Part shown: piece by piece, positions 2,258 through 42,637 of the stretch | Numbering within the stretch: position 1 is the first letter of the stretch | How the letters are laid out: each line of letters opens with the position of its first letter | Source of the DNA: Alphaproteobacteria bacterium | GTDB lineage: Bacteria; Pseudomonadota; Alphaproteobacteria; UBA828 | Length of the DNA: 64,000 bases | Assembly (NCBI GenBank): GCA_965243375.1 | Contig: CBDEUT010000006.1 | Location: forward strand, 64,131-128,130 | Direction of reading: 5' to 3' | The notes under the pieces: model-generated | What the model was told of the DNA's origin: nothing | Seen by the model: only the letters and a program-made list of their open reading frames with translations | Databases searched by the model: none | Translations under genes and position numbers: made by a program

Positions 2258-2308
2258 GCCAAACTCATAACCTGAAGGTCGCAGGTTCAAATCCTGCCCC
2301 CGCTACCA
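2258..2308 (+). other. 3' half of initiator tRNA-Met (anticodon loop to CCA), likely att direct repeat of the island to the left
   Basis: Sequence ctcataacctgaaggtcgcaggttcaaatcctgcccccgctacca matches the tRNA-fMet 3' half: CAT anticodon loop, GCAGG/CCTGC T-stem, TTCAAAT T-loop, acceptor CCCCGCT, then A and CCA. No matching 5' half or D-arm upstream, so it is a partial copy. Confidence 0.6.
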
Positions 2309-3486: not shown

Positions 3487-3812
3487 TGTTGTTTCCCAGA
3501 TTAGCTGACCGCAGATTTGCCGGATTATTTCGCGCGGCGGCGAGGCGGATTTCCCACGCTGTTTGGTCATTGTCGGAAGGAAGAGAGGGGGTGGGGGGGT
3601 GTCGGCCGGCCGTCGGCGCGTCAAGCCGCTACGCGGCTCCTTCGCTGCGCTACGGCCCTTCGGGTGACCCGCCGCCGTCCGCCCGACTGAGTGCATCCAT
3701 GGCCGTAAGCGGAGCTTTCGGCCATGGGCCGATCGCTCGACGCCTTGTCGTGGCCGGAGCCTGACGAGCGGTTTGCGAGGGTGGTTCCCGTGAGCGGTTC
3801 CCCCTCGAACCC

Positions 3813-4865
3813 CTAGGGATGGGCGGAACCGGGAACCGGGAACCGGGCGTTGTCGGGGTGGCTGCCGTTGGCGGCCGGGGAGGCCTTTTCGGCCTGGCCC
3901 GCGGCGAGGCCGTAGTGCCCCTCGGCGTCGTGCCGGACGCGTCCTTCGCGGACGAGCTTTTTGAGGACGACGCCGACGGTCTTGTGCCGGGTCGCGGCGC
4001 GTTCGCGGATCTGGCGCTGCGACAGCGGCGTCCCGGCTTCGGCGAGCGCCTTGAGGATGCGCCGTTCGGCGGTTTCGGGCTCGGGCGCGGCCTCGGCAGT
4101 ATCCACTTGGCGGAGGCGCAGCGCGGGCCCCTTGCCGTCATCGGCGAGTTCGATCTCGATGTCATTGAGGCCGGGGGCGGCGCGGTGCTCGACGGTCATG
4201 ACGATCTGCCTGTCGCGTCGGCGCAGGTAGAGATTCGAATCGCCCCACGCGTGCAGTTCCGAGCTTCCGCGCAGGGCCTGGCCGGGCCTTGTGGCGCCGC
4301 TCTTGCGGGCGTGGTGGACGAGCAGGACGGCGGCTCCGAAGCGGCGCTGGATGTCGCGTAGGAAGCCGAGGATGGGGGCGACCTCGGCGACGGTGTTCTC
4401 GTCGACGCCGTGCAGCCGGACCAGGGGGTCGAGGACGACGAGGCGGGGCCGGATGCGTTGCACCGTCTCGACCAGCCGCCGGCGGTCGGCGCGATGATCG
4501 AGGCGCAGCGCGGGCACGTCGATGACTGCGATGTCGAGGCTCTCGAACCGGGCGCCTGCGGCGCTCGCGATACCCTGGAGCCGGGCACGCACGATGTGGC
4601 CGGCGTCCTCGGCGGCGAACAGCAGGACGGGTCCTGGCTCGTCGGCGGCGAAGCGGCGCAGGCAGGGGACGCCGGCGGCGACCGCGACGGCGAGGTCGAG
4701 CGCCAGGAAGGACTTGCCGCACTTGGGCTCGCCGCCGACGATGCCGACCGCCTGGCGCCCCCACAGCCCGTCGATGAGCCACTGCTGCTGGCGCGGCCGG
4801 TCCTCCAGCTCCACCGGCGCCCGCGTCGGGAAGCCGTTCGCCGCCGCGTCCCCGGTGCCGGTCAC
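3813..4865 (-). CDS. RecA-fold AAA_25 (RepA-like) ATPase with C-terminal winged-helix domain, transposon-encoded
   Basis: Walker A GIVGGEPKCGKSFLALDLAVAVAAG and Walker B-like RLVVLDPLVRLHG; LLVHHARKSG. C-terminal ERRILKALAEAGTPLSQRQIRERAA winged-helix-like. GTG start overlaps the stop of the upstream ATPase gene. Mirror of 32921-33973. Confidence 0.7.
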   Translation of the reverse strand: MTGTGDAAANGFPTRAPVELEDRPRQQQWLIDGLWGRQAVGIVGGEPKCGKSFLALDLAVAVAAGVPCLRRFAADEPGPVLLFAAEDAGHIVRARLQGIASAAGARFESLDIAVIDVPALRLDHRADRRRLVETVQRIRPRLVVLDPLVRLHGVDENTVAEVAPILGFLRDIQRRFGAAVLLVHHARKSGATRPGQALRGSSELHAWGDSNLYLRRRDRQIVMTVEHRAAPGLNDIEIELADDGKGPALRLRQVDTAEAAPEPETAERRILKALAEAGTPLSQRQIRERAATRHKTVGVVLKKLVREGRVRHDAEGHYGLAAGQAEKASPAANGSHPDNARFPVPGSAHP

Positions 4866-5662
4866 GGCTTGAGCTCCTCGATGGCATTCTGGAGGTGGCC
4901 GGCGTTGACCGTCTTCGCCTTCTCCAGGGCGGCGGCCGACAGCGCGTAGTGGGCGAGGCGGTTGACCTGGCGCGGCAGGCCGCGGGTTCCCTGGAACAGG
5001 GCCTCGACGGCGGCGTCCTCGAACAGCGGCAGCTCGCATCCGGCGAGGCGCAGGCGGTGGGTCAGATAGGCCTCGACCTCGTCGCGGTCGAGGCCGGTGA
5101 GGTGGTGGCGGACGACGACGCGCTGGGAGAGCGATTCGTGCACCGCCATCGACAGCCGCCGCCTGAGCTCGGTCAGCCCGACCAGGATCAGGCACATGCG
5201 GTTCTCGGAGTCCATCGCGAAGTTGGTCAGCAGGCGGAGGTCCTCCAGCACGTCGTTGCGCAGATGATGGGCCTCGTCGACGACCAGCACCGGGAACTGC
5301 CTGGCCTCGGTCGCGAGGCGCGAGATCTCGGTCCTGATCGCGTGGTGGGCCGAGGATCGCGAGCGCTCGACGGTGATGCCGATCTCCCAGGCGATGGACT
5401 TGTACATGTCGAGCACGTTGCCGGTGGTCAGCGAGACGTAGTGGACTCGGAACAGGCCGGGGTGGAGCTGGGCGGTAAGATGCCGGCACACGGTTGTCTT
5501 GCCGGCACCGACCTCACCGGTGAGCATGCCGATGCCCTTGAGCTCGATGAGGTGGCCGAGCCGGGCCTCGGCCTCGCGGCGCGCGCTGGATTCGAACAGC
5601 TCGTCGGTCTCCGCCACGGTCTCGAAGGGCATGCGGGTGAAGGCGAAGTGGCGCTGGTACAT
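4862..5662 (-). CDS. TniB/MuB/ExeA-like AAA+ ATPase (transposition helper)
   Basis: MYQRHFAFTRMPF...GIGMLTGEVGAGKTTVCRHL (Walker A) and VLVVDEAHHL (Walker B). ATG overlaps the transposase stop by 1 nt, with an AGGAGGA Shine-Dalgarno. Mirror of 32124-32924. Confidence 0.75.
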   Translation of the reverse strand: MYQRHFAFTRMPFETVAETDELFESSARREAEARLGHLIELKGIGMLTGEVGAGKTTVCRHLTAQLHPGLFRVHYVSLTTGNVLDMYKSIAWEIGITVERSRSSAHHAIRTEISRLATEARQFPVLVVDEAHHLRNDVLEDLRLLTNFAMDSENRMCLILVGLTELRRRLSMAVHESLSQRVVVRHHLTGLDRDEVEAYLTHRLRLAGCELPLFEDAAVEALFQGTRGLPRQVNRLAHYALSAAALEKAKTVNAGHLQNAIEELKP

Positions 5663-7023
5663 CAGTCGTCCTCCTTGAACTTGCGCATCTTGAGCGGCGA
5701 GGGCGGCGGCTCTGGGGCCGGGTCGTCGGGTTCGATCTTCTTGGAGTAGTGGCCGCGCTTCACCGCGGTGTTGGCGTAGGCGTCGAGGCGGGTTGCCTGG
5801 CCGACAGGCTTGCCGTCGTGCACCACGCCGAGCGGCCGCGACGGCGGCGCATCCGGGTCGTAGCGCAGCACCACCCTGTGGCCGACCAGCAGGGCGTCGA
5901 CCTCGTAGACGCGGCCGTTCAGGCTGACGGTGCGGTCCTTGTGGACCAGCCGCTTGGCCTCGAAGAGGAAGATATCGTCGAGGTCCAGCGTGGCGTCGGG
6001 GTAGCGGACCGCGGCCGAGGCGAGTGCCCATTGCTCGAGCGGGGTGCGCCCCTCAAGGCCGCGATGCGGACTGTTGTGATACTCGCCCTCGATCCACGCC
6101 CACAGGCTGCGGTTGAGCGTCTGGAGGCTGTCCAGGACCGGCGCATCGAGATGGGCGAGCCAGCCGGCGCGAAGCGTTCTGAACCACCGTTCGATCTTGC
6201 CCTTTCCCGCTGGTTGATACGGCCTGGCATGCACCAGCACGATGCCCAGCTTCGCGCAGATCAGGGCGAGCTGGCGGGAGCGGTAGGCGGCGCCGTTGTC
6301 GACATAGAGGCGCTGCGGCAGGCCGCGGCGGATCAGCGCGTTCTTGAACACGGGCAGGAAGGCCTGGACGCTCTCGGCCATGGCGAAGGCGGCGAAGGGC
6401 ACGACCCGGGTGGCGTCGTCGATGAAGGCGATCAGGTAGGTCTTGCGTCGGCTCCGGCCGTGCCGGACCTTCGGCCCGTGCATGACGTCGCTCATCCACA
6501 GCTCGCCGGCGTCCCGGAAGGCGAAGCGGCGGCGGTCGGCGCCGTCCGGCGGCTTGCCGTCGAACAGCCCCTCGCGGCTCAGCAGCCGGTGCACGGTGGA
6601 TGGAGCGAGCGGGTGATCGATGCCCTCCTCGACGGCCGCGCGGATGATCGCGCGCACCGGCCAGGTCGGGTTGTCGACCTTCAGCGTGACCAGGCGCTCG
6701 GCGACCTCGGCCGGCAGCCGCCGGGGCTTCCCGCGGTCGCTACGTGGTCTGGGGTAGAGCGCCTCGAAGCCGCCATCGCGATAATGCCTGATCCAGTCCC
6801 GCATGGTGTCGGCGGCGACACGGGTCCGGTCGGTTCCGGGGATGGCATAGGTCTGGCTCGCCTTCTCGCGAAGCTTGTCGCCGACGCCCTTGGCGCCCAT
6901 CGGCAGATGCACCAGATCGGCGATGACGCCGTATCGGAACAGCGCGATCGCCTGGCGAAGGTCGTCGTCGGATTCCTTCATGTCATGGTCCTCGTTGCTG
7001 GGGCTCTTCGGCCCCGGGACCAT
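5662..7023 (-). CDS. DDE transposase, Mu/Tn552 orf480/TniA-like (rve integrase core)
   Basis: 453 aa. N-terminal HTH-like region. Core WMSDVMHG...YLIAFIDDATR...LYVDNGAAYRS...HARPYQPAGKGKIERWF is the typical rve DDE catalytic domain. Mirror of 30763-32124. Confidence 0.8.
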   Translation of the reverse strand: MVPGPKSPSNEDHDMKESDDDLRQAIALFRYGVIADLVHLPMGAKGVGDKLREKASQTYAIPGTDRTRVAADTMRDWIRHYRDGGFEALYPRPRSDRGKPRRLPAEVAERLVTLKVDNPTWPVRAIIRAAVEEGIDHPLAPSTVHRLLSREGLFDGKPPDGADRRRFAFRDAGELWMSDVMHGPKVRHGRSRRKTYLIAFIDDATRVVPFAAFAMAESVQAFLPVFKNALIRRGLPQRLYVDNGAAYRSRQLALICAKLGIVLVHARPYQPAGKGKIERWFRTLRAGWLAHLDAPVLDSLQTLNRSLWAWIEGEYHNSPHRGLEGRTPLEQWALASAAVRYPDATLDLDDIFLFEAKRLVHKDRTVSLNGRVYEVDALLVGHRVVLRYDPDAPPSRPLGVVHDGKPVGQATRLDAYANTAVKRGHYSKKIEPDDPAPEPPPSPLKMRKFKEDD

Positions 7024-7027
7024 GACG

Positions 7028-7672
7028 CTACGCCGCCGCCGGAGGGGGATCAGGCCCCATCGAGTGTTGGAAGCCCGCCTTGCGACTCATCGTGCCGATT
7101 CCGTGGGGTTGGAAGCCCAATGGGGCGGGCAGCATCTGCAGTTGCTCAGACACCAGGCCACGCAGCGCCATCAAGGCGCTGTCGCTGTTGAGACGCTCGC
7201 GAACCGCCACCATGGTGGCCGCGCAGCCCGCCAGCCGGTCGGGGATCAGGCCGATGACACGGACAAGAACGTTGTGGACCAGGCGAAGCCGGTGGCGCAC
7301 CCAGCGCATCGCGCCGGGAAGCTCGATCGCGTCTTCGTCCTCGGGGCAGCGCACCTCGTTCGCTGCCTCCTCCAGGCTGCCGGCTTTCTCCGCCGCCACA
7401 ACAACCGCTTCCAGATCGTCGAGCGTGCCCGGCAGCCGCGACGACAGGCAGTCGGCCAGCATGCTGATCGTCGTATGGCTCTCACGGCAATACCAGCGGG
7501 GAACCTTCGCACCGGGCGGGGTCTTCCGCCCGTAGGTGCCGTGGCTGCCCACGGAACATCCGCCGTGCGGGTGATTCGGGCAGCGCTCAAGCCTTGCCTC
7601 GCGCCACGCCTCGGTCTTAACGTATTCCTCGCCGGTAAGCCCCGTCTCGTAACGAAGCTGCAAACCGGCCAT
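7028..7672 (-). CDS. Cys/His-rich hypothetical protein, first gene of the transposon operon
   Basis: 214 aa with a CPNHPHGGCSVGSHG...WYCRESH metal-binding-like motif. Ends 5 nt before the transposase start. A diverged homolog occupies the same position in copy C. Mirror of 30114-30758. Confidence 0.55.
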   Translation of the reverse strand: MAGLQLRYETGLTGEEYVKTEAWREARLERCPNHPHGGCSVGSHGTYGRKTPPGAKVPRWYCRESHTTISMLADCLSSRLPGTLDDLEAVVVAAEKAGSLEEAANEVRCPEDEDAIELPGAMRWVRHRLRLVHNVLVRVIGLIPDRLAGCAATMVAVRERLNSDSALMALRGLVSEQLQMLPAPLGFQPHGIGTMSRKAGFQHSMGPDPPPAAA

Positions 7673-7866
7673 GGCCCGGCGGGGATCAGCCCGTGCGGGC
7701 CTCTTCCTTGTTGTTCCTCGTCAGTCCGAGACTACGAAACCGCCCCGGCGACGCAAAGCCGCCAGGTCCACCCATCCCACGCTCGGCCACAATCCCGGGG
7801 AATTCACCGGCAGCCCAATGTGGGAAAAAAACCCGAGTTCCTATCGGGCTAAACCGCGAGACAACA

Positions 7867-8337
7867 GTAGCCATAGCAGATGCCGCCGCCCGACTTGCCG
7901 GCCTCGACCCGGCCCCTCAATCCCCGGTGGGTCTTCGCCGCAAGGTCCTTCAGGAACAGCGCGTTCATCGTGCCCTTGAGGCCGACATGCAGCTCGTTGA
8001 TCTCGCCTTCGCCTGCCGAGAGCGTGAAGATCTTCACGCCGGCGAAGCGCAAATGCTTGTAGAGGGTCGCAACGTCGGCCTGGTCGCGGCTCACCCGGTC
8101 CAGCGCCTCGGCGACGACGATCTCGAACGCGCCCCGCCGCGCGTCCTCAAGCAGCGCCTGGACGCCGGGCCGGAGGATCACGCTGTCGCCCGAGATGGCG
8201 GAATCCTTGTAGGTCCCGACGACCTTCCAGCCTTCGCGCTCGGCGCGCTCGCGGCAGACCCGGAACTGGTCCTCGATGGAAGCGGCCCGCTGCTGGTCGG
8301 ACGAATAGCGGGCATAGAGTGCGCAGCGCAGGGTCAT
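7867..8337 (-). pseudogene. large serine recombinase, N-terminal catalytic (resolvase) domain, cut by transposon copy A
   Basis: MTLRCALYARYSSDQQ (catalytic Ser region)...GKSGGGICYGY. Stops at the transposon end. Continues in frame at 3486 downwards. Confidence 0.75.
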
Positions 8338-8368
8338 GGTCCAGGGTCTCCTATCGGTCGTGCGCCGA

Positions 8369-8779
8369 TCATGCGGATCGCGGCGCTTCCAGGTCGAACA
8401 GCGGAATATCCATCGCGCGGGCCACATCGTTCATCCGCCGGTCGTAGCTCGCCAACGCGACCCCCTGCCCGTGTTCGGCCAGATAGGCGCACGACGCCAG
8501 ATGCAGGGCGTCGAGGGTGCGCAGCGCGCCGGGGCCGGGAAAGGCGTCCAGCGCCCGCGCCAGCACCGAAGGCGATAGCTCCAGCATCGCCACCCGCCCG
8601 GTCAGCCAGCGCGCCGCCTCGCCGTAGGACTCCGCGAGCCCGCGCGCATGCAGCGGGGTCCATATCTCGTATTCCAGCAGCCGGCTGGAAAACAGCGTCT
8701 CGTCCCACAGCGAAGCGGGCGGCTGCCGGTTCTCGGCCAGAAGATGCGCGAGCGCGACGGACGAATCGAGGTAGATCAC
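8369..8779 (-). CDS. vapC: PIN-domain toxin VapC
   Basis: MIYLDSSVALAHLL... PIN-fold acidic residues. 4-bp overlap with the upstream antitoxin gene. Confidence 0.8.
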   Translation of the reverse strand: MIYLDSSVALAHLLAENRQPPASLWDETLFSSRLLEYEIWTPLHARGLAESYGEAARWLTGRVAMLELSPSVLARALDAFPGPGALRTLDALHLASCAYLAEHGQGVALASYDRRMNDVARAMDIPLFDLEAPRSA

Positions 8780-9069
8780 CGGTCGCGCCGGCTCTCGTCC
8801 AGATCGGCCAGGATTTCTTCCAGCGTGGCGACGGGCTTGGGCTTGGGCGGCGGTCCCGAAGCGGTCAGCCTCGGCGGCGTCAGCACGCCGGACCGCACCG
8901 CTTCGGCCAGAAAGGCGTCGGCGAGGATCGGGCTCCGGGTCTCCCGGAGCGGTCCGAGCTCCGCCACCACCTGATCCCGGTCAGTGACCAAGATCGTCTC
9001 GCCGGAGGACGCAAGCCGGACGTATTCGCTCAGCTTGTTGTTCAGAACCTTGATGCCGACCGATCTCAT
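8776..9069 (-). CDS. type II antitoxin, Phd/YefM-like
   Basis: 97 aa: VGIKVLNNKLSEYVRLASSGETILVTDRDQVVAELGPL matches the Phd/YefM pattern. Lies immediately upstream of and overlapping vapC. Confidence 0.7.
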   Translation of the reverse strand: MRSVGIKVLNNKLSEYVRLASSGETILVTDRDQVVAELGPLRETRSPILADAFLAEAVRSGVLTPPRLTASGPPPKPKPVATLEEILADLDESRRDR

Positions 9070-9900
9070 GCCGGGAAGGTAGCAACCGCTCCCTACCGCG
9101 TCAACCCGGCTCGCATCATGGCCGCCGCGCCCTACTGAATCGGTCAGCGGAGGCCGGACCCGGCCGCGCGGCGACGGAGCCGCTGTCGCGCGTCCTGGGT
9201 CGGCCCGAAGGGGACAGGAGTATCATGGAAAAGTCGTGATCGCCGGGCGCGGCGGCGTGTATCGGTGCGACATGCGCCGGGAAGCCGCCGGGAGCCACGG
9301 TTCTCCAGGGAAGCGCACCGGAAGCCTCTAACCCGTTGAAATTCCGCGATGTGTTCGTAGCGTGTTACATCGCAATACGGCGTGTCGCGCCAGAGCATGC
9401 GCACTTTTCCAAGGGTTCTCCGGAGAATTATCGGGGACATGAGGCGACAGGGGGGAGCTTGGGGGAGCCACAGGGTGACAGGGGATGACAGGGCACCATG
9501 GTGCGGCAGGTGTGTAACCCTTAACGCCCGAAGGGCGTCGAGCAACGCCCCTCCACACGCAAGCGCTTCGGGCCGAGGAAACCATGCGGTTCCCACAGTT
9601 TAGCCCGAGCGGCGCTTGAGCGCCCGGCCTCGCCGCGCATGCGATGAAGACGGTTCCGGACCCGCCGCGCAGCTTACCGGGTCATTATAGGAAGCACGCC
9701 TGGCGGCGCAAGCGCGCTGTTGGCGGTCGTGGTCGACGGGACGGAGGTTGTCCCGGTAGTCAATAGGGGGGACCCGCGCGGCTTCGCGTAGCGCCTCGCG
9801 TTACGCGGAGCGAAGACGCGCGGGGGGTGCCTGTTGACCCACCGGGGCAACCGGGCCGCGTGCTCGTGCCGGCGCCACGACGACACCGGCGGCGATGCCG

Positions 9901-11076
9901 TCACGGATCGGACGCGCCGGGGGCGAGCGACATCGCCTCGGCGATGATGCTGCCGACATGCTCGGCCGCCGCGACGAGGTGGTCGTCGGCCAGATGCGCA
10001 TAGCCGGCGGTCGTGGACTGGCGGCGATGCCCGAGCAGCTTGCCGACCAGGGGCAGGTTCTCGCCGGACATGACGGCGTGACTCGCTACGGCGTGTCGCA
10101 GATCGTGGAGCCGCGCCCGGCCGATCCCGGCGTCGGCGCAGATCGCGTGCCATCGGACCCGCACCTGGTCCTGCCACCATGCGCTTCGGGCGTGCTCGGG
10201 GAACACGAACGCGTCGGGCCGCCGCTCGCCGGGGAGCGCATCGAGGATCGCGCGCGCGGGCGAACCCAGCGGCACGGTGCGCGGCCCGGCCTTGGCGTCG
10301 TCGAGCTGGATCGTGTCCCGCCCGATGTTGCGCCAGCGCAGTGTCAGCACCTCGCCGCGCCGGCAACCGGTAAGCGCGAGCAGCCGGATCGCGGCGACGG
10401 TCTCGGGCCAGTCGGCGGCGCGCGCGTCGAGCGCACGGCCGAGCCGTTCGAGCTCGCCGGTGTCGAGGAAGCGCGCGACCGGCTTCTTCGGGTTCATCCT
10501 GATCCCGAGACAGGGGTTGGTGCCGGGCGCCCGCCATCCCCACTCCTCGGCCCGGAACATCATCGCGCGCAGGATCTCCAGCGCCCGGTTCGCCGCGCCG
10601 GGCCAGTCGCGGCTCGCGGCGTCGAACCAGGCGGCCACGTCTTCGGGGCCGAGCATGTCGAGCCGCATGGCGCCGAACGCGGGCAGGATGCGCGCCTTGA
10701 GATAGATGTGCACGGTCCGGCGTCCCGACGGCTTCAGGCCGGGGCCGCAACAGCGCAGATACTCGTCGGCGAAGTCCTTCACCGTCGGCGCGGCCCTCGC
10801 CTTGCGGGCCTCCTCGGCGGGATCGTCGCCCGCGCGGATACGCGCCAGCATCTCGCGGGCGCGGCGCCGCGCTTCGGCCAGCGCGATCTCGCCGTGCCGG
10901 GCTAGGCCCAGGCGCCGGGTCCGGCCGTCGATGCGCGCCTGGACGATCCACACCTTGCGCCCGCTCGGATGGATGCGCAGCCCGAAGCCCGGCAGCGCCC
11001 GGTCGAACAGGATGGTCTCCTTCTCGCCGGGCCGGCTGTCGCGGGCGAGCTTCGCGGTCAGGTCAACCGTCGGCAT
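9901..11076 (-). CDS. tyrosine integrase (second gene of tandem pair), 391 aa
   Basis: HDLRHAVASHAVMSGENLPLVGKLLGHRRQSTTAGYAHL catalytic region. N-terminal LPGFGLRIHPSGRKVW arm-type domain. Start overlaps the upstream integrase gene by 14 nt. Confidence 0.85.
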   Translation of the reverse strand: MPTVDLTAKLARDSRPGEKETILFDRALPGFGLRIHPSGRKVWIVQARIDGRTRRLGLARHGEIALAEARRRAREMLARIRAGDDPAEEARKARAAPTVKDFADEYLRCCGPGLKPSGRRTVHIYLKARILPAFGAMRLDMLGPEDVAAWFDAASRDWPGAANRALEILRAMMFRAEEWGWRAPGTNPCLGIRMNPKKPVARFLDTGELERLGRALDARAADWPETVAAIRLLALTGCRRGEVLTLRWRNIGRDTIQLDDAKAGPRTVPLGSPARAILDALPGERRPDAFVFPEHARSAWWQDQVRVRWHAICADAGIGRARLHDLRHAVASHAVMSGENLPLVGKLLGHRRQSTTAGYAHLADDHLVAAAEHVGSIIAEAMSLAPGASDP

Positions 11077-12259
11077 GGCCGCCCCCTCCCTCCCGCTCCC
11101 GGCCGCTTCCGGCCAGCGCCGCCTGGATGCGCCCGGAGACGCGCTCGGCGGCCTCCGCGACCGACCGGTCCGACAGGTGGACGTAGCGCTCGGTGGTCTC
11201 GACCAGGGCGTGGCCGAGCAGCTTGGCGATGGTCACCATGTCCACGCCGTTCATGGCGGCGACGGAGGCCCAGCTATGCCGGCAGTCATGCAGGCGCACG
11301 TCGAACAGCCCGGCCTCGCGGCGGATACGGCCCCACTGCACGTCGATGTTCCGGATCGGCCGGGTCGGCGGGCGGCCCGGAAACAGATACGGGCAGTCCT
11401 CGCCGTAGCGCGGGATCGCATCGATCACCGCGCGCGCGGCTCCCGACAGCCACACCGTGCGCGGCCCCGACTTCGAATCGGGAAGCATGATGCGCTTGTC
11501 CCTGATCCAGTCCCATTCGAGCGCGAGGACCTCGCCGACCCGGCAGCCGGTCAGCAGCAGCAGGCGAATGACGGCGACGACATGCGGGCACCAGAACTCG
11601 TCGCGGGTGAGCACGGCGTTGAGCCGGGCGAACTCCTCGGGCGTGAGATAGCGTTCCTTGGGCGCCATCGGGTAGCGCCGGGTGTTCCGGCAGGGGTTGG
11701 TGTTGTGGAGGCGATAGCCCCACAGTTCGGCCGTCTTCATCATCACCGACAGCACCGGCATCGCCCGGTTGGCGGTGCCGGGCCGGTTGGCCATGGAGGC
11801 GAACCAGTCCTGAACGTGCTCGACCGCGATGGCGTCCACGGTCATGTCCCCGAAGGCGGGCAGGATGACGTCGCGGATGAAGCGCCGGTTGCCCGCCAGC
11901 GTGCTCGGCTTCCAGTGACGCGCGTGACGTTCGATGAACTCCTCGGCGAACTCCGTCATGGGACGGCCGGGATATCGGGGGCCGTCCCCCGTCTCCGGCG
12001 TCTCAACCAAGGTCGTGAGCGCCCGGCGCGCCTGGTTGCGCGCCTCGGGCAGGCTCATCCGGTCGGCAGGTCCGAGGGTGACCGAACGCACCCCGCCGTC
12101 GGGCAGCCGGCGGCGCAGGAAGAAGCGCCGGGCGCCGTTCGGGTAGATGCGCACACCGAGCCCGGAGATCGCGTCGTCCCAGACGGCATACTCCTTCTCG
12201 CGGGGCCGGGCCGCCGCGATGCGACGGGCGAAGGAAGGGCGGGAATCTGGCTTTGCCAT
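11063..12259 (-). CDS. tyrosine integrase (first gene of tandem pair), 398 aa
   Basis: HDCRHSWASVAAMNGVDMVTIAKLLGHALVETTERYVHL. An identical protein is encoded at 62575-63771 on the plus strand. Confidence 0.85.
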   Translation of the reverse strand: MAKPDSRPSFARRIAAARPREKEYAVWDDAISGLGVRIYPNGARRFFLRRRLPDGGVRSVTLGPADRMSLPEARNQARRALTTLVETPETGDGPRYPGRPMTEFAEEFIERHARHWKPSTLAGNRRFIRDVILPAFGDMTVDAIAVEHVQDWFASMANRPGTANRAMPVLSVMMKTAELWGYRLHNTNPCRNTRRYPMAPKERYLTPEEFARLNAVLTRDEFWCPHVVAVIRLLLLTGCRVGEVLALEWDWIRDKRIMLPDSKSGPRTVWLSGAARAVIDAIPRYGEDCPYLFPGRPPTRPIRNIDVQWGRIRREAGLFDVRLHDCRHSWASVAAMNGVDMVTIAKLLGHALVETTERYVHLSDRSVAEAAERVSGRIQAALAGSGREREGGGGHADG

Positions 12260-13128
12260 GTGGCGGCTCCTTAGTCAGGGGCCGCGCGGCAGCGGGTCAA
12301 TATAGGAAGCGGCCGCGGCGGCGATTGCACAGGCAAGCCACGGGGCCGGAAGAGACAGGGTGTACCCTAACCCGCTCTAACTACGGAACTTTCTCTCCAT
12401 CCATGCATCGGCGAGACCAGGCAGAAATTGCGCGGTACGGGCGGCAGGTGTGAAGACCTTAACTCGCGTCAGCGAGTCAATTGGAATTGGGCGTTCAGCC
12501 TCAATGTCGGACGATGGCAACAAGGCGGTTCAAGGCTTTAGCCCAAGTGGCGCTTGAACGGGAATCGGCCCGAACGCGTGAGGGATTGACGCTGCGATCC
12601 GCAAGCGGCTTGCAGAGGGTCACTATAGGAAGCGCGGAAGACGATCCGGTGCACCGAGACAGGCACGAGGTCCATCACGGCATCCGTCTGCACTGTCGGC
12701 GCATCTGCCACGAACGATGACGGGACCGGCTGCACCGGGCTCGGCATCACTGCGGACCGTCCTGTCGGCGATGCTGTCGGCCGGGTCGTCGATGCTGTCG
12801 TCGCCGGTGACGGCGAGCGCGCGGCGCCGGGCGTTGGTGTCGCGGTCGCCTTTGCCGGCGATGTCCGGGCGGCGGACAGCGGCGAGGGGATCGCCGAAGA
12901 CGCGCAGACGCGACCGGTTGTTGCCTTGCGCTCCAGGCGGTTGCGGCTTACGGTACGCGAAATCGGAACAGGCGACGCTCGGCAGAAGTGCGCGCCGCAC
13001 GGGGTGCCATGCCGGGCGACAGGTGCGGAGGCGACGCGATGAACCCGATGACCATGTTGAGCGACGGTGTGGCGGCGTTTCGCGCGATGACGGCGAGCGG
13101 GCTGGAACGCTGGTCCGGCGTTTTGCGC

Positions 13129-13160: not shown

Positions 13161-13161
13161 G

Positions 13162-13249
13162 CCGGGTCGCCGGGTCGCCGGGTCGCCGGGTCGCCGGGTC
13201 GCCGGGTCGCCGGGTCGCCGGGTCGCCGGGTCGCCGGGTCGCCGGGTCG
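13162..13249 (+). repeat. tandem octanucleotide repeat (CCGGGTCG) x 11
   Basis: Perfect 8-bp units directly downstream of the TATAAT hexamer. Ends 24 nt before the ATG of the 889-aa surface protein gene. Confidence 0.9.
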
Positions 13250-13273: not shown

Positions 13274-15943
13274 ATGAGCGCGCCCGCATCGCGGGACCGC
13301 TCCCGCCCGCCGGCCTCCCCGCCTGAGTTTTCCGCCTCCGGCCGGCGCTGCGATACAGCCCGGTCCGCTTCTTCCTCCGACAGCTTCGGTTCTTCCTCCG
13401 CCCGCACGGCCGCGGGCGTCCGCCCTGCCGCCCGCAGCCTGCGGCGCGGCTTTGCCGCCGCGCTGCTCTGCCTGCCGCTGCTCGCCCCCTTCGCCCTGCC
13501 CGCCGCCGCGCAGACGGCGACGGCGTTCGTCAGCAACCTCGGTCAGACGACTATTTCTACCGAAGCTGAACTCAACGACGACGCCGCTCAGGATTTCACC
13601 ACCGGCCGCCACGCATCGGGCTACAAACTGACCGGCGTTGATATGGAATTCGGCACCGTAAGTCAGGCAGGCACCCATTCGACCTTCACCGTCGCCATCC
13701 ATGAAGATTCCAGCGGCAGTCCGGGCACCCTGGTCGGCACCCTGACGGTTCCCTCCATCTCGACGGGGAGCGACCAGACAATCAGCTTCGCGGCGTCCGG
13801 CGATGGCCTCGACCTTGCGCCGAACACCCGATACTGGATCGTGTTCGACGTTACCGCAGCCGGGATTGGTAGTGGTTCTGAAGGTTTGTCTCTTGTGACT
13901 GTGAACTCGGAGGATGCCGGCGCCGCGTCCGGCTGGGAAATCGGCAACAACTCACTTTATCGCAACTGGGATGCCAGCTCCTGGAATACCGACTCCAACA
14001 GCCTCCAGTTCCAGGTCAACGGCACGGCGAACCCCGTCGCCACCCTCTCCATAACCGCCCCTGGGGACGCAGCCGAGGGCAACGCGGACACGCGTGACCT
14101 GACCTTCACGGTGACCCTGAGCGAGCCGGTGTTGGTAACCGTCAGCTATCAGGTCTGCTTCTCGGGCACCGCGACCATCGATCTGACCGGTGCCGCGACG
14201 ATACCCGCCAGCGCGGATTACCAGCCTCGCTATGTTGCTGTGACCAACAACCCAAGCGCCTCGGCCTGCATCACCGGCGGGAACATCGCACCCGGGCAGG
14301 TCACCAGCAAACATGTCGGCATCCGCGTCAAGGGCGACACCGAGGGCGAGTTCGACGAGTCGGTGATCGCGACGCTGTCGTTTTTCGGCACCCCGCGTCC
14401 GGGCGTTGAGCTTGGCACGTCGGAGGCGACGCACTGGATCCGCGACGACGACGGTGCGGCGCTGACGCTCCGCTACGGCGCGGGGCGGGCCAACGCGCCG
14501 GAGGGCAGCACGACGGGGTACGGGGAGTTCTACCTGTACCCGTTCAACCGGGCGCTCGGCTCGGGCGAGACGGTGACCGTGCCGCTGTCCTTCACGGGCG
14601 GGACGCTGGGGACGGACTTCACGCTCTCGGTCGACCCCAACCACGGGTTCGCGTCGGCGGTGCTGAGCGGGAGCACGGTGACGATCACCGGCCCCGGGCC
14701 GAGGAGGCTGCTCTATCTGCGCGTCTTCGCGCCCGACGACACCGACACGACGGACGAGACTGTGACGCTGGGCGTCGGGGCGGCGACCAGCACCGTCGGC
14801 ACGGTCAGGCCCGACAAGCAAGGCAACGCCCAGGTCACGCTGTACGACGACGACGTCTCGCAGTCGCTCACGGTCGAGTTCACCCGGTCCGCGTTCACGG
14901 TCGACGAGCCCGACGATCCGTCGCAGCCGGTGCTGCGGCTCTCCGAGGTGCCGCGCAGCGACATCGCGATACCGGTGACGGTGAGCGACGGCACGGCGGT
15001 GCGCGGCGAGGACTATACGAGTGCGGCGACGCGGACCGTGACCTTCCCGGCCGGGAGTGCGGCGAGCCGGAGTTTCGATATCACGATCATCGACGACGCC
15101 GACTACGAGCCGGTCGACGAGACCTTCACGGTGGCCATCGACACTTCCTCGCTGCCCGCCGGGGTGACGGCGAAGGCGGGGGGCAACCTCCAGGCGACGG
15201 TGACCATCGTGAGCGAGGACCCGGAGGCGGACCCGATCTCCGACAGCGACTTCCTCGTCCTGGGGACCTTCGAGGAGCTCCAGTACGAGGAGCACGACCG
15301 CCGGGGCCCGGACTTCGCGGTGCACCGGCTGAGGAAGGCCAACAACGGCACCATCCCCGACGCCTGGGGGTTCCGGCTCTGCTTCGCCGGCACGGCGACC
15401 TGGGGCGCGGACTACCGGGTGAAGGCCCGCAACGGCAGGGTGCTGACGCTGGACGGCAACGGCTGCACGGCGCGCAACAGCGCGGCCTATGGCACCGCGG
15501 TGCCGGCGGGCAGCGACCGGTCGTGGTTCTCCGTCGAGCCCATCGACGACGCCCACGAGGATTCGGGCGAGACCATCGTGATCTCGGTCTCCAAGCCGTA
15601 CAACACCAACCTGTTCGGCGGCGGCCCGGCCGGCGAACCCAAGGTCAGCTACGGCAAGGACAGCCTCACCTTCGTCATCCTGAACCACGAGATCGTGGAG
15701 CATGCCAAGGCGGAGCCGGCGGTGCAGGTCTCCTCCGGGACCGGGGGCACGGAGGGCGAGGCGGTCCAGTTCACGCTCCAGGCGGTGCCGGCGCCGGCCT
15801 CGCCGTTCGACGTGACGCTGACGGTGAGCCAGGAGGGCGACCATGTGGCGGCAAAGGACCTCGGTCCGCGCACGGTGACGGTGCCCGTGAGCGGCACGGT
15901 GACGGTGAGCGTCCCGACGGTTGAGCGCGCTCTCGGTATCTGA
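13274..15943 (+). CDS. large secreted protein with Calx-beta repeats (surface or adhesin-like), possibly C-terminally truncated
   Basis: Signal-peptide-like RRGFAAALLCLPLLAPFALPAAAQTA. Repeated TFxxGxxxxxFxIxIxDDxxxExxExFTV Calx-beta motifs; Thr/Gly/Asp-rich. The stop lies immediately before the degenerate end of transposon copy C. Confidence 0.7.
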   Translation: MSAPASRDRSRPPASPPEFSASGRRCDTARSASSSDSFGSSSARTAAGVRPAARSLRRGFAAALLCLPLLAPFALPAAAQTATAFVSNLGQTTISTEAELNDDAAQDFTTGRHASGYKLTGVDMEFGTVSQAGTHSTFTVAIHEDSSGSPGTLVGTLTVPSISTGSDQTISFAASGDGLDLAPNTRYWIVFDVTAAGIGSGSEGLSLVTVNSEDAGAASGWEIGNNSLYRNWDASSWNTDSNSLQFQVNGTANPVATLSITAPGDAAEGNADTRDLTFTVTLSEPVLVTVSYQVCFSGTATIDLTGAATIPASADYQPRYVAVTNNPSASACITGGNIAPGQVTSKHVGIRVKGDTEGEFDESVIATLSFFGTPRPGVELGTSEATHWIRDDDGAALTLRYGAGRANAPEGSTTGYGEFYLYPFNRALGSGETVTVPLSFTGGTLGTDFTLSVDPNHGFASAVLSGSTVTITGPGPRRLLYLRVFAPDDTDTTDETVTLGVGAATSTVGTVRPDKQGNAQVTLYDDDVSQSLTVEFTRSAFTVDEPDDPSQPVLRLSEVPRSDIAIPVTVSDGTAVRGEDYTSAATRTVTFPAGSAASRSFDITIIDDADYEPVDETFTVAIDTSSLPAGVTAKAGGNLQATVTIVSEDPEADPISDSDFLVLGTFEELQYEEHDRRGPDFAVHRLRKANNGTIPDAWGFRLCFAGTATWGADYRVKARNGRVLTLDGNGCTARNSAAYGTAVPAGSDRSWFSVEPIDDAHEDSGETIVISVSKPYNTNLFGGGPAGEPKVSYGKDSLTFVILNHEIVEHAKAEPAVQVSSGTGGTEGEAVQFTLQAVPAPASPFDVTLTVSQEGDHVAAKDLGPRTVTVPVSGTVTVSVPTVERALGI

Positions 15944-16200
15944 TGGCGCGGTGATCGGTTTGTTTGATGGGCATCGTTCGCGGCTGGTGGGGTGACCGGG
16001 GGTGTCGGACGGCCGTCGGCGGGTCAAGCCGCTACGCGGCTCCTCCGCTTCGCTCCGGCCCTTCGGGTGACCCCCCGCCGTCCATCCGACGGAGTGCATC
16101 CATGGCCGTAAGCAAGCTTCCGGCCACGGGCCGATCGCTCGACGCAGTGCGGCAACGGGGGCTGGCGAGGGGTGTTACCCGTTACCGTTACCCTGCCTCC

Positions 16201-16767
16201 CTAGGGGTTCGAGGCGGTAACGGTTTTCGGTAACGCGTCGTTGCGGCCCGCGTGGTTGACGGCGGCCGGCGGCGCCGCGTTTTCGGCGGCGAGGCGGTAA
16301 CCGCCCTGGGGTGCGCGTTCGACGCGCCCGGCGCGGACGAGCTTGCTCAGCGCTTCGGCGACGGTTGCGGGCCGGGTTGCCGCGCGCTCGCGGATCTGGC
16401 GCTGCGAGAGCGGTGCATCGGCGTCGGCGAGGGCTTGGAGGATGCGCCGTTCGGGTGTTTCCGGCTCCGGCGCGGCCTCGGCCGGCACCGGCCGCCGCAA
16501 GCGCAGGGCGGGTCCCTCGCCGTCATCGGCGAGTTCGATCTCGATGTCGGCGAGGCCTGGAGCGGCGCGATGCTCGACGGTCATGACGATCTGCTTGTCG
16601 CGGCGGCGCAGATAGAGGTTGCTGTCGCCCCAGGCATGGAGCTCGGACGACCCCCTGAGCGCCTGGCCCGGCCGGCTGGCACCGCTCTTGCGGGCATGGT
16701 GGACGAGCAGGACGGCGGTCTCGAAGCGGCGCTGGAGGTCGCGCAGGAAGCCGAGTATGGGAGCGAC
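16201..16767 (-). pseudogene. AAA_25 RecA-like ATPase gene of copy C, C-terminal fragment (split by IS66)
   Basis: APILGFLRDLQRRFETAVLLVHHARKSG... near-identical to the C-terminal half of the copy A/B protein. Confidence 0.7.
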
Positions 16768-16877
16768 GTAAGCATCCGGCGGGGACCGTCTGTGCGATAA
16801 GCTGAAAATCGGCGAGTGTTCGCGATCGGTGGTGGGCACCGTGGTGCCCACCGTGGAGCAGACGGAGGCGATCGCGG

Positions 16878-17282
16878 ATGTCGAATGAACAGCAGGCGAA
16901 TTTGGGTGCCGAGGCCGAGGCCGGGAAACGCCGCCGGGCCCGGAAGTGGAGCGACGCCGACAAGCGGCGGATCGTTGCGGAGAGCTACGCGCCCGGCGCC
17001 ACGGTGACGGCGGTGGCGAAGCGCAACGACGTGCGCGCCAATCTGGTGTTCGATTGGCGACGTCGGTTTCGCGAGGAGGATGGCGAGGCCGGGGGCGGCG
17101 GGTTCGTGCCGGTGATTGTCACGCCGTCGGGCGATGCACCGCCGGAGGACGGCTACTTCGGCGCAGCGCCGGCGGCCGGGCGGATCGAGATCGCGCTTTC
17201 CGGTGGCGTGCGGGTGACGGTTGACGGAACGGTGGATGCCCCTGCGCTGGCGCGGGTGCTTGCGGTCGTGGAGCGCCGATGA
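16878..17282 (+). CDS. tnpA: IS66 TnpA (Orf1)
   Basis: 134 aa; ...RRIVAESYAPGATVTAVAKRNDVRANLVFDWRRRF... typical IS66 Orf1. Confidence 0.85.
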   Translation: MSNEQQANLGAEAEAGKRRRARKWSDADKRRIVAESYAPGATVTAVAKRNDVRANLVFDWRRRFREEDGEAGGGGFVPVIVTPSGDAPPEDGYFGAAPAAGRIEIALSGGVRVTVDGTVDAPALARVLAVVERR

Positions 17283-17626
17283 TCCCGGTCCCGGGCAGCG
17301 TGCGGGTGTGGTTGGCGACCGGGGTGACGGACATGCGCCGTGGCATGAACACGCTGGCGCTTCAGGTTCAGGAGGGTCTCGGCCGCGATCCCCACGCGGG
17401 GGATCTCTACGTGTTCCGCGGACGCCGCGGCGATCTCGTCAAAATTTTGTGGCATGACGGTCTCGGGTTCTCGCTCTACGCCAAGCGCCTGGAGCGGGGC
17501 CGGTTCACTTGGCCGTCGGCATCGGGCGGCGCACTGTCGATCAGCTCGGCGCAGCTCGCCTACCTGCTTGAGGGGATCGAGTGGCGCAACCCGGTTCGCA
17601 CTTGGCGCCCGTCGCGGGTGGGCTGA
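17279..17626 (+). CDS. tnpB: IS66 TnpB (Orf2)
   Basis: 115 aa; MIPVPGSVRVWLATGVTDMRRGMNTLA...DLYVFRGRRGDLVKILWHDGLGFSLYAKRLERGRF; 4-nt overlap with tnpA. Confidence 0.85.
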   Translation: MIPVPGSVRVWLATGVTDMRRGMNTLALQVQEGLGRDPHAGDLYVFRGRRGDLVKILWHDGLGFSLYAKRLERGRFTWPSASGGALSISSAQLAYLLEGIEWRNPVRTWRPSRVG

Positions 17627-17693
17627 GGCCGGGCGAATCACCCTGCGCGATTGGCAATTGCCGTGAGGCTGCGAATCTGATTCATTCCCGGCC

Positions 17694-19280
17694 ATGACGG
17701 TCACGGCCCGACGCGACGTTGAAACTCTCGAGGCGGCGCTTGCGGCCTCGGAGGCTCGGGCAACGGCGGCCGAGGAGCAGATCACCTCGCTGAAGCTGAT
17801 GGTCGAGAAGCTGCGCCGTGCGCTCTACGGGCAGCGCTCGGAGCGCACGGTGCGTCTCCTCAACCAACTGGAGCTTGCGCTCGACGAGCTGACGGCGGAC
17901 GCGACGGAGGACGATCTCGCGGCCGAGCAAGCCGCGGCCGAGACCACCCAGGTCAAGGGGTTCACGCGCCGCAAGCCGTCGCGCAAGCCCTTCCCCGAGC
18001 ATCTGCCGCGCGAGCGGGTGGTGGTTCCTGCACCGACATCGTGCGCGTGCTGCGGGTCGGAGCGGCTGTCGAAGATCGGCGAGGACGTGACCGAGACGCT
18101 TGAGGTGATCCCGCGCCGGTGGAAGGTGATCCAGACGATCCGCGAGAAGTTCACCTGCCGCGATTGCGAGAAGGTCTCGCAGCCGCCGGCGCCGTTCCAC
18201 GCGGTGCCGCGAGGTTGGGCGGGTCCGAACCTTCTGGCGACGATCGTGTTCGAGAAATATGGCCAGCACCAGCCGTTGAACCGGCAGCGCGAGCGCTACG
18301 CGCGCGAGGGGGTCGACCTGAGCCTGTCGACGCTGGCCGATCAGGTCGGGGCCTGCGCCGTGGCGCTGAAACCGCTGCATGACCTGATCGCCGATCACGT
18401 GCTTGCGGCCCGGCGCTTGCACGGCGACGACACTCCCGTCCCGGTGCTGGCCAAGGGCAAGACCGTCACCGGGCGGGCTTGGGCCTATGTGCGTGACGAC
18501 AGGCCGTTCGGCGGTCCGGATCCGCCGGCCGTGCTGTTCCGATACTCCCGCGACCGTTCGGGCAATCACCCGGTCGAGCACCTGAAGACCTTTGCCGGGG
18601 TGCTTCAAGCCGATGCCTATGCTGGCTTCAACCGGCTCTATGTGCCGGGCCGCTCGCCGGGAGCCGTGATCGAGGCCCTGTGCTGGGCTCACAGTCGGAG
18701 GAAGTTCTACGAGCTTGCCGATATCGCGGCGAGCAAGAGGCGCGGCGAGCAGGCGCCGCCGATCTCGCCGCTGGCGATGGAGGCGGTGAAGCGGACCGAC
18801 GCGCTGTTCGACATCGAACGCGAGATCAACGGCAAGAGTGCCGATCAGCGCCTTGCCGTGCGCCGGGAGGCGAGCGCGCCGCTCGTCGCCGATCTCGAGG
18901 ACTGGATGCGCACGGAGCGTGCCAGGCTGTCGCGCCACGCCTCTGTCGCCAAGGCGATGGATTACATGCTCAGACGCTGGGACGGCTTCACCCGTTTCCT
19001 CGATGACGGCCAGATCTGCCTCACGAACAACGCTGTCGAGAGGGCGCTTCGGGTCATCGCTTTGGGACGAAAATCCTGGCTGTTCTGCGGCTCCGATCGC
19101 GGCGGAGTGCGGGCGGCGGCGATGTACACCCTCATCGGCACCGCCAAGCTCAACGATGTCGATCCCCAGGCCTGGCTCGCCGATGTTCTCGGACAGATTG
19201 CCGATCTGCCGCAAAGCGACCTGCACCAGCTCCTGCCCTGGAACTGGAAGACAGCCCAGCACCAGGCCCTGGCCGCCTAA
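17694..19280 (+). CDS. tnpC: IS66 transposase TnpC
   Basis: 528 aa with leucine zipper, CxxC...CxxC zinc finger (CACCGSERL...CRDCEKV), DDE core and conserved C-terminal region. Confidence 0.9.
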   Translation: MTVTARRDVETLEAALAASEARATAAEEQITSLKLMVEKLRRALYGQRSERTVRLLNQLELALDELTADATEDDLAAEQAAAETTQVKGFTRRKPSRKPFPEHLPRERVVVPAPTSCACCGSERLSKIGEDVTETLEVIPRRWKVIQTIREKFTCRDCEKVSQPPAPFHAVPRGWAGPNLLATIVFEKYGQHQPLNRQRERYAREGVDLSLSTLADQVGACAVALKPLHDLIADHVLAARRLHGDDTPVPVLAKGKTVTGRAWAYVRDDRPFGGPDPPAVLFRYSRDRSGNHPVEHLKTFAGVLQADAYAGFNRLYVPGRSPGAVIEALCWAHSRRKFYELADIAASKRRGEQAPPISPLAMEAVKRTDALFDIEREINGKSADQRLAVRREASAPLVADLEDWMRTERARLSRHASVAKAMDYMLRRWDGFTRFLDDGQICLTNNAVERALRVIALGRKSWLFCGSDRGGVRAAAMYTLIGTAKLNDVDPQAWLADVLGQIADLPQSDLHQLLPWNWKTAQHQALAA

Positions 19281-19443
19281 GCCGGACCTCACCAGAGACA
19301 CCGTCTTCCCTGCGGCCGAGGCCGCGTCTCTGCGCGGTCCACCGTGAGCGTCACCGTGGGGCTGAGCGTCACTCGCCTGCCCACCTTGGAACTCCCCGTC
19401 ACGTTCCGCGATTCACCGTCTGCGGTCCCCGCCGGATGCTTAC

Positions 19444-19910
19444 GGAGCGACCTCGGCGACGGTGTTTTCATCGACGCCGTGCAGGCGGACCAGGGGGTCG
19501 AGGACCACGAGGCGTGGCGCGATGCGCTGCACGGTCTCGCGCAGACGCTGCCGGTCGTTGGCATGGTCGAGGCGCAGGATGGGAGCGTCGATGACGGCGA
19601 TGTCGAGCGTCTCGAAGCTGGCGCCGGCTGCCCGGGCGATGCCCTCAAGCCGGGCGCGCACGATGTGGCCGGCGTCCTCGGCCGCGAACAGCAGGACCGG
19701 TCCGGGCTGTTTGGCGGCGAAGCGGCGCAGACAGGGAACGCCGGCGGCGACGGCCACGGCGAGGTCCAGAGCCAGGAAGGATTTGCCGCACTTGGGTTCG
19801 CCGCCGACGATGCCGACGGCTTGGCGTCCCCAGAGGCCGTCGACCAGCCACTGCTGCCGGCTCGGGCGGTCCTCAAGGTCGGCCGGGCTTCGGGTCGGGA
19901 AGCCCTTCAC
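19444..19910 (-). pseudogene. AAA_25 RecA-like ATPase gene of copy C, N-terminal fragment (split by IS66)
   Basis: MKGFPTRSPADLEDRPSRQQWLVDGLWGRQAVGIVGGEPKCGKSFLALDL...; ends at the IS66 boundary. Confidence 0.7.
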
Positions 19911-22254: not shown

Positions 22255-22264
22255 GTAGAGCGCC

Positions 22265-30758: not shown

Positions 30759-30762
30759 CGTC

Positions 30763-42620: not shown

Positions 42621-42637
42621 GGTGGCAGCGTGCCGGG

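Follow-up and report, generated by a model that had tools for sequence, protein, structure and literature searches.

A 2.95-kb putative site-specific integrative element with a pair of overlapping tyrosine integrase genes, present in two inverted copies in an alphaproteobacterial contig

Results

Two overlapping integrase genes between directly repeated cores

The DNA analysed here, hereafter the window, is a 64,000-nt stretch of contig CBDEUT010000006.1 from an alphaproteobacterium; its G+C content is 68.7% and all coordinates follow its own numbering. Positions 9503-12452 hold a unit of 2,950 bp, element copy 1, in which two tyrosine integrase genes, IntA and IntB, lie between directly repeated copies of a 12-bp core. 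In the direction of the genes the layout is core CACACCTGCCGC, a 181-nt P arm, IntA, IntB, a 153-nt spacer, the S1 arm and the core again, and both the list of open reading frames (ORFs) and a domain search gave the two integrase genes as the entire gene content. An earlier reading of the same DNA, the original prediction, had described two integrase genes of 398 and 391 aa overlapping by 14 nt, and the ORFs bear this out and repeat it at a second locus. A simple promoter and terminator scan of 9100-12800 found nothing. A discrete unit, short direct core repeats and an integrase adjoining one end are what is expected of an integrative element, and copy 1 is probably a complete and minimal one of the site-specific kind, with an identical copy in inverted orientation starting at 62382 (copy 2; Table 1).

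The inverted repeat shared by the two copies, 10834-12452 versus 62382-64000, is 1619 nt long, 100% complementary and limited only by the window end. Its other boundary coincides exactly with the outer edge of the 12-mer GCGGCAGGTGTG. The predicted ending of the repeat at the 12-mer was therefore exact, although the core of copy 2 had been placed one position off, at 62383-62394 instead of 62382-62393, and the third 12-mer proposed at 9503-9514 proved to be an exact match. When up to one mismatch was allowed the window contained four matches against 0.91 expected, a number that 0 of 100 shuffled sequences reached. The original prediction had raised the concern that the 12-mer could lie at many unrelated positions, or that the identity boundary could miss it. 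The 1619-nt repeat stops at its outer edge, and all 15 of 15 exact matches to the 12-mer within roughly 1.2 Mb of related loci fall at att-type junctions, so it is not a dispersed repeat.

On the outer side of copy 2, next to gene G, a search with the family S-arm profile found no S arm. This fits insertion at a secondary site and agrees with the inverted secondary integration proposed earlier beside the gene at 61908-62375. The idea that X, core and G represent one interrupted gene was rejected, since no ORF crosses the junction.

Junctions in related genomes

Junctions that share the core but differ in their arms occur in the window as X-core-S1, P-core-S2 and P-core-G, and more of them were found in independent genomes. 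When aligned, the junctions of the window and of the independent genomes share just the 12-mer, as had been anticipated for the crossover site of a site-specific recombinase. Related contigs carrying the pair were obtained by exact-protein look-up, and labels such as L001 and L002 denote contigs or loci. The boundary is the same to the base in independent assemblies from different samples (L001-L009 and L026), and the short-read contigs L003-L008 begin or end near the element ends, which is expected of a real multi-copy unit.

The 1.6-Mb contig L001 has flanks about 95% identical to the window, and is 100% identical from 12452 to about 9275. Beyond the core the 220 nt of 12453-12672 are only 41-63% identical in L001 and L002, amid DNA farther out that is 90-100% identical, which marks the S2 arm as a swapped variant. 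The 110-kb metagenome contig L002 matches window positions 12510-9744, carries a transposon insertion, resumes with 9748-9502 and departs from the window exactly at 9502/9503, the left core edge. What follows beyond this core is a second overlapping pair, IntA'/IntB', with 43-45% protein identity to the window pair, and IntA' starts 191 nt from the core versus 193 nt for IntA of the window. The tandem accretion of related integrative elements put forward in the original prediction is thereby seen directly, and many family members are placed behind another S arm and core.

A metagenome scan for TTAAGGNNNN together with the core identified three contigs (L091, L095 and L096) in which an S2-like arm, the core, an X-like arm and a TrwC region follow one another with no integrase genes between the arms. 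The S2-like arm at these unoccupied sites ends with the hairpin CTCGC-TTCG-CGAG followed by TTAAGGTCTT. The TrwC region of L091 has 83% nucleotide identity to the right flank of L001, and X-like arms after the core were present in L008, L026 and L091. In its sequence the site appears to match the predicted attB (S2-core-X), for which the attP would be S1-core-P. The reconstructed attB of seven relatives contained long ORFs with low GC3 (G+C at third codon positions), in GC-rich DNA where ORF continuity says little.

The two integrases

Both IntA and IntB contain the domains Arm-DNA-bind_3 (PF13356), SAM-like core-binding (PF14659) and Phage_integrase catalytic (PF00589; E = 4e-19 for IntA and 2e-20 for IntB). 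They are 37-38% identical to each other with a complete R-K-H-R-H-Y set in both, and no variation at R240, K263, H324, R327, H350 and Y359 (numbered as in IntA) was seen across IntA, IntB and three relatives. The catalytic residues, the N-terminal arm-binding domain and the SAM-like domain are together those of the 'complex' integrases of the lambda/P4 type.

A neighbour-joining tree was made of 14 pairs, including those of the Shewanella oneidensis MR-1 megaplasmid and an Aurantiacibacter atlanticus plasmid, in which the genes overlap by 4 nt and are annotated merely as integrases. First-position proteins formed one clade, most second-position proteins stood apart and the subtrees were mirrored, which shows the pair to be an old, co-evolving module. 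The exception consisted of L040x, L056x and the window integrase at 890-2131, where both positions cluster together. This third, unpaired tyrosine integrase of the window (minus strand, 413 aa, Arm-DNA-bind_3) adjoins a low-GC stretch (51% in 1-1000), and no tRNA was found. On inspection the sequences flanking the crossover of the paired-integrase cores had no dyad symmetry, which would fit two different proteins reading two half-sites.

A family of paired integrases

Loci encoding IntA relatives were collected by scanning one genome per species. About 80 such loci were found, most with 65-73% protein identity, nearly all in marine metagenome-assembled genomes (MAGs) of which many are sponge- or coral-associated, and with taxon labels covering Alpha- and Gammaproteobacteria, Binatia, Thermodesulfobacteriota, Acidobacteria, Nitrospirales and Spirochaetia. 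The family locus is multi-copy in several genomes, and an intact IntA followed by IntB was present in 48 loci. The exact IntA and IntB proteins are recorded from Rhodospirillaceae MAGs as generic 'tyrosine-type recombinase/integrase' (IntA is MYI50109.1, 'MAG: Rhodospirillaceae bacterium'), and bins of Rhodospirillales and Gammaproteobacteria supply variants with 98-99% identity. Full-text literature searches turned up no account of a conserved arm-binding integrase pair, an absence that is no proof of novelty, and the paired-integrase family is apparently large and undescribed.

Alignment of the 300 nt upstream of IntA gave the order S arm, core, palindrome GCACC-gat-GGTGC, P arm with two GCTTCC repeats and ribosome-binding site. 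The upstream S arms are characterised by CGCTCAAnCGCCGC..GGCT and GC-rich hairpins. Among intact pairs with a recognisable family core, CACACCnnnCGC, most have 182-194 nt between it and the start codon of IntA. At most loci the S-arm profile located an S arm and core again in the same orientation 0.15-6.3 kb past the IntB stop, and the family unit is core-P-IntA-IntB-cargo-S-core with a size of 2.95-9 kb. One relative (L026) has an 8.4-kb unit that begins and ends with the identical 12-mer and is followed by an X-like arm, and the same core-bounded layout with family core variants was seen in about 30 further loci. Where the left flank is not an S arm the cores are hybrid (a slash marks the switch): GCGCCAC/CCGC in L012, CATACTCC/ACGC in L049, CAACCGCG/ACGC in L056, CACAACAG/ACGC in L032 with the attR CACACCCG/AAGC, and the attR CACACCCG/CCGC in L055. 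Each hybrid is compatible with a switch of sequence after core position 8, CACACCTG/CCGC.

The cargo of the larger relatives includes type IIG/ISP-like restriction-modification (12 loci), Mrr (4), XRE-type regulators (10) and a 165-aa protein (14). This last protein matches nothing in Pfam, and its gene lies immediately inward of the S arm on the other strand (L042 15563-16057, minus strand, and 13 other loci), often beside an XRE-type helix-turn-helix (HTH) gene. The protein is absent from the window element; it could be a regulator or a directionality factor. The 'type b' upstream S arms come directly after the conjugative-element genes Toprim/DUF7146, SSB, DUF4326 and YAcAr, and several right flanks of relatives contain TrwC, so the elements are typically found where bigger mobile elements meet. 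In the relatives, relaxase and other conjugative-type genes are located in the flanks and not inside the element. Many loci have a distant integrase pair (about 40% identical) next door. Some of these are convergent or divergent with the main pair (L021 14237-16501, L043 13628-15868, L019 3010-5218, L050 5277-7519 and L052 3667-5939), and for some the IntB end lies within 20-80 nt of the adjacent att core. Elements of either orientation appear to gather at the att region.

Attachment-site arms, motifs and hairpins

The stretches of approximately 200 nt rightward of the two cores that end at 9514 and 12452 are mutually homologous by alignment, and with nhmmer the family S-arm profile matched both S1 (E = 1e-21, 9748-9502) and S2 (E = 6e-13). 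The homology between these flanks, with the sequence blocks quoted for it in the original prediction, was in this way confirmed, and the TATAGGAAGC blocks are the GCTTCC motifs. The 17-mer GGGTCAnTATAGGAAGC, which includes the TATAGGAAGC block, occurs three times, in S1, P and S2 (Table 1), and the S1 and S2 copies are each 165 nt from their plus-strand core. Throughout the family GCTTCC is found in P arms at about +140 (140-160) nt from the core in 26 of 26 and at about +100 (100-120) nt in 22 of 26, and in element-borne S arms at about -180 nt in 29 of 46 and inverted at -40 in 32 of 46. Fixed spacing of this kind is the pattern expected for arm-type sites, given the arm-binding domains in both integrases, and the GCTTCC motifs are candidates for such sites.

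Hairpins by the cores, which had also been predicted, are present, although their folding energy is not clearly better than that of shuffled sequence. The GC-rich hairpin beside the core may be a transcription terminator that insulates the element end, a modest reading suggested by the terminator-like look of this hairpin in many relatives. A structured RNA in the S arm was considered and rejected on the absent RNAalifold consensus and the mean hairpin z-score of -0.75. A tRNA scan and an Rfam search of the S arm gave no tRNA and no family at gathering score, with chance-level matches only. Homology of X, P and the P' arm of L002 was likewise dismissed, as no clear alignment extends past the core and the first few bases.

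Table 1. Features of element copies 1 and 2 and their flanks in the 64,000-nt window
Feature	Position	Strand	Description
X arm (target-side flank)	9275-9502	-	P-like; family palindrome ACCATGGTGCC first, three GCTTCC repeats, no integrase genes after
Core, IntB-distal end of copy 1 (attR)	9503-9514	+	GCGGCAGGTGTG on plus strand, CACACCTGCCGC in integrase orientation; exact 12-mer
S1 arm (element-borne)	9515-9748	-	Conserved block CGCTCAAGCGCCGCTCGGGCTAA; terminal hairpin CGCCC-TTCG-GGCG adjoining core
GCTTCCTATAATGACCC motif in S1	9679-9695	-	Candidate arm-type integrase binding site, 165 nt from core
IntB	9901-11076	-	391 aa tyrosine integrase, downstream partner of IntA
IntA	11063-12259	-	398 aa tyrosine integrase; 3' end overlaps IntB start by 14 nt
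P arm and IntA leader, 181 nt	12260-12440	-	GCTTCC motif(s), ribosome-binding site, small imperfect palindrome beside core
GCTTCCTATATTGACCC motif in P arm	12294-12310	-	Candidate arm-type site, 131 nt from core, just upstream of IntA
Core, IntA-proximal end of copy 1 (attL)	12441-12452	+	Exact 12-mer; outer limit of 100% inverted repeat
S2 arm (target-side, S-like)	12453-12680	-	nhmmer match; contains GGGTCACTATAGGAAGC motif at 12617-12633
Gene G	61908-62375	-	155 aa, no family match; outer flank of copy 2, ATG 6 nt from core
Core of copy 2	62382-62393	-	Reverse complement of 12-mer, exact match; inverted-repeat end
P arm of copy 2	62394-62574	+	Inside 100% inverted repeat
IntA of copy 2	62575-63771	+	Full length, identical to copy 1
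IntB of copy 2	63758-64000	+	First 81 codons; window end cuts gene

Surrounding mobile DNA

The window is a mosaic of mobile DNA. A 4381-bp Mu/Tn5053-like transposon with genes for an HTH protein, a Mu/TniA-like rve transposase (Mu-transpos_C) and an AAA_22 (TniB-like) ATPase is present in two inverted, 100% identical copies, at 3486-7866 and 29920-34300. The first copy splits a large serine recombinase into a resolvase domain (7849-8427, minus strand) and a Recombinase plus Zn-ribbon part (2265-3479, minus strand); the gene is intact in L001 (670 aa), and a 4-nt alignment overlap suggests a target duplication of 4-5 bp. A related rve/AAA_22 transposon at 15922-23028, with a nested IS66 at about 16767-19444, truncates a Calx-beta / choice-of-anchor-R surface-protein gene to 889 aa versus 1917 aa in L001. 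The same transposon without IS66 is inserted in the S1 att arm of L002 (11334-15754) with a 5-bp duplication (window 9744-9748). With one landing of rve/AAA_22 transposons in a serine-recombinase gene and one in an att arm, the pattern recalls the 'res-hunter' behaviour of the Tn5053 type.

Upstream of the Calx-beta / choice-of-anchor-R gene an 8-bp tandem repeat, GCCGGGTC (13161-13248), lies between a TATAAT box and the start codon (ATG at 13274), with 11 copies in the window, 6 in L001 and at least 15 in L002. As the copy number differs among close relatives, the repeat may tune or switch expression of the surface protein. Just past the X arm a Phd/YefM-like antitoxin (8776-9069) and a PIN-domain toxin (8369-8779) are encoded on the minus strand, a position taken in L001 by a TrwC relaxase and a Gp49/HTH pair. 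Between the two copies of the integrase pair a run of minus-strand genes (35203-48554) encodes a Strawberry-notch-type helicase (1511 aa), SRAP, DUF6197, DUF6573 and a ParB_N-domain protein (875 aa), as is typical of the leading regions of conjugative elements. A low-GC island (24001-25000, 51% versus 69% overall) is situated past the transposon that ends at 23028 and ahead of the second 4381-bp copy. An ankyrin-repeat protein (28251-29396, plus strand, 381 aa) is eukaryote-like and in keeping with the origin of the related MAGs, which is marine and in part sponge-associated; ankyrin-repeat proteins are often reported in sponge symbionts.

Discussion

Relation to known recombinase systems

Most likely the unit is an integrative element of the lambda/P4 type that relies on a conserved pair of integrases and forms tandem arrays by accretion at att sites shared between elements. 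It resembles lambda/P4 integrases in the architecture of Arm-DNA-bind_3, SAM-like domain and catalytic R-K-H-R-H-Y residues, and lambda/P4 elements in having the integrase at one att end, short direct core repeats and repeated motifs on both attP arms. Lambda/P4 elements have a single Int, usually with Xis, whereas here two overlapping paralogs are kept as a unit with no recognisable excisionase, and the usual target is the att site of related elements rather than a tRNA or housekeeping gene as for lambda/P4 islands. As with XerC/XerD on dif, two different recombinases presumably act on one asymmetric core and elements pile up in tandem at a shared site; unlike XerC/XerD, the pair is element-encoded and has arm-binding domains and long att arms. 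The XerC/XerD NCBIfam models gave 46-64 bits against cut-offs of 220-335, and the integron integrase model gave 27-34 bits against a cut-off of 265, with no cassette array present.

Systems with more than one recombinase gene are RIT (RitA/B/C), GInt (GinA-D), strand-biased circularizing elements (IntA-Tfp-IntB-Srap) and Tn554 (TnpA/TnpB/TnpC); in PMC10214605, which tabulates these systems, the strand-biased and GInt types are described with the operon intA-tfp-intB and srap (or ginA-D) and short imperfect inverted terminal repeats. The present element shares with them the recombinase operon at one element end and the overlapping frames that suggest translational coupling. It differs in having two genes only, with no counterpart of Tfp, Srap, GinC/D, RitC or TnpC, in its arm-binding 'complex' integrases, and in its direct core repeats and long dissimilar arms in place of short inverted repeats. 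In place of the three consecutive recombinases of RIT there are two between the cores, and two in all 48 intact related loci; there is no gene between the overlapping IntA and IntB and no fourth gene as in strand-biased elements or GInt, and the ends are direct repeats. The sizes of 398 and 391 aa and the lack of a third gene separate the pair from the TnpA, ~630-aa TnpB and TnpC of Tn554, a distinction by gene content and sizes only. Tandem arrays of integrative and conjugative (ICE), integrative and mobilisable (IME) and cis-mobilisable (CIME) elements are similar in that core-sharing elements stand side by side, relic arms (S2 and X) are present and small elements are found behind a larger conjugative-type element. 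The minimal element carries no transfer function, as no conjugation or mobilisation genes (relaxase, oriT or type IV secretion system) were present within its 2.95 kb, and so it is itself neither an ICE nor an IME. The BIM of Cupriavidus metallidurans is also a two-gene module with a tyrosine recombinase, and identity with it was rejected because its second gene encodes an SMC-domain protein and not a recombinase (PMC3414803).

Proposed mechanism and alternative explanations

In the proposed mechanism, S1, core and P would be joined in an excised circle to give an attP of roughly 350 bp, and strand exchange would take place within the 12-bp core, at the switch between positions 8 and 9. Copy 1 would have entered a pre-existing S2-core-X site left by related elements, producing S2-core-[P-IntA-IntB-S1-core]-X, with the S2 arm as an attB-derived relic of an earlier related element, and copy 2 would have integrated at a secondary site just upstream of gene G. 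IntA and IntB would be translationally coupled through their 14-nt overlap and may form a heteromer in which each protein reads one dissimilar core half-site, by analogy with XerC and XerD. Inversion of the 50 kb between the two copies, by homologous or site-specific recombination, is possible.

Several observations weigh against this account. No excisionase is recognisable in the 2.95-kb element. The right end of copy 2 falls outside the window, so that its S arm and core are predicted only. A circular junction (S1-core-P) was not found, and two scans of viral contigs for P-core and S1-core junctions were empty. The relative with the unoccupied site is only about 80% identical, and this site could be an ancestral att-like site instead of a pre-insertion allele. 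Folding of the terminal hairpins averages z = -0.75 against shuffled controls, and RNAalifold gave no consensus structure on the S arms. That both integrases are jointly needed is a proposal. The evidence comes nearly all from MAGs, where repeats may be misjoined or misbinned.

This last point leads to the least probable of the alternatives, in which the two copies with their shared 12-mer result from segmental duplication, homologous recombination or an assembly error and the 12-mer at the boundary is a coincidence. The window is full of other repeats and transposons, and it is itself probably MAG-derived since the exact proteins are recorded from MAGs. We nevertheless regard such an origin as very improbable, because independent assemblies (L001-L009 and L026) have the identical boundary to the base, fewer than one 12-mer per window is expected by chance, and short-read contigs break at the element ends as they would for a real multi-copy unit. 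Only a little more credible, and still improbable, is a module for multimer resolution of a plasmid or conjugative element, XerCD/dif-like or res-like, in which IntA/IntB and S-core-P would belong together and the cores would be resolution sites. The contiguity of S, core and P in most related loci, the type-b S arms directly downstream of Toprim/DUF7146, SSB, DUF4326 and YAcAr, the plasmid location of the cultured relatives of the pair and the resemblance of two recombinases on one asymmetric site to XerC/XerD all speak for a resolution module. It does not account for units of 3-9 kb bounded by direct core repeats, for hybrid cores at unrelated flanks or for a syntenic site that lacks the unit, and both proteins have the N-terminal arm-binding domains typical of integrases, with Xer family scores of 46-64 bits far from the cut-offs of 220-335. 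Also unfavourable to it are the multiple copies within single genomes and the occurrence of near-identical copies in bins of different classes.

A more serious alternative accepts the integrative element but assigns integration to one of the two proteins alone, with the other serving directionality in place of an excisionase, or recognising sites of another class, secondary targets for example. An excisionase-like protein is absent from the minimal element, and the paralogs are only 37-38% identical and have been kept as separate lineages over a long evolutionary distance, all of which would suit a division of this kind. Every catalytic residue is kept in both proteins, the gene overlap suggests a fixed stoichiometry, and the core half-sites lack the dyad symmetry normally needed by a homotetramer, so we consider a single integration recombinase unlikely, yet with a real share of the probability. 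The proposal of a joint integrase goes further than the integrative element itself and is made tentatively, with the balance of probability slightly against it: IntA and IntB would be obligate partners in a heteromeric integrase that depends on the arms, a lambda-type intasome on the plan of XerC/XerD, and would define an unnamed 'paired-integrase' class. Its members would be abundant in marine MAGs, many from sponge or coral symbionts, with near-identical copies in bins of different classes and usually with restriction-modification cargo, and would home to each other's att sites and thereby build, through accretion, arrays of defence and mobile elements, the 2.95-kb form being the minimal autonomous unit.

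Significance

Integrative elements with a single tyrosine integrase are textbook. The known multi-recombinase types (RIT, GInt, strand-biased circularizing elements and Tn554) employ 'simple' recombinases and have puzzling mechanisms. A conserved arm-binding pair with a defined core and arms would be tractable for the division of synapsis, cleavage and directionality between paralogs, possibly without an excisionase. If the proposal is true, the cargo-less 2.95-kb form would approximate an insertion sequence that moves by site-specific recombination. The 2.95-kb unit could also be developed into a compact, self-contained tool for site-specific integration. With members in bins from several phyla, the family is a candidate vehicle for spreading restriction-modification and other cargo, and its targeting of related att sites would offer a concrete mechanism for the building of mobile-element and defence islands.

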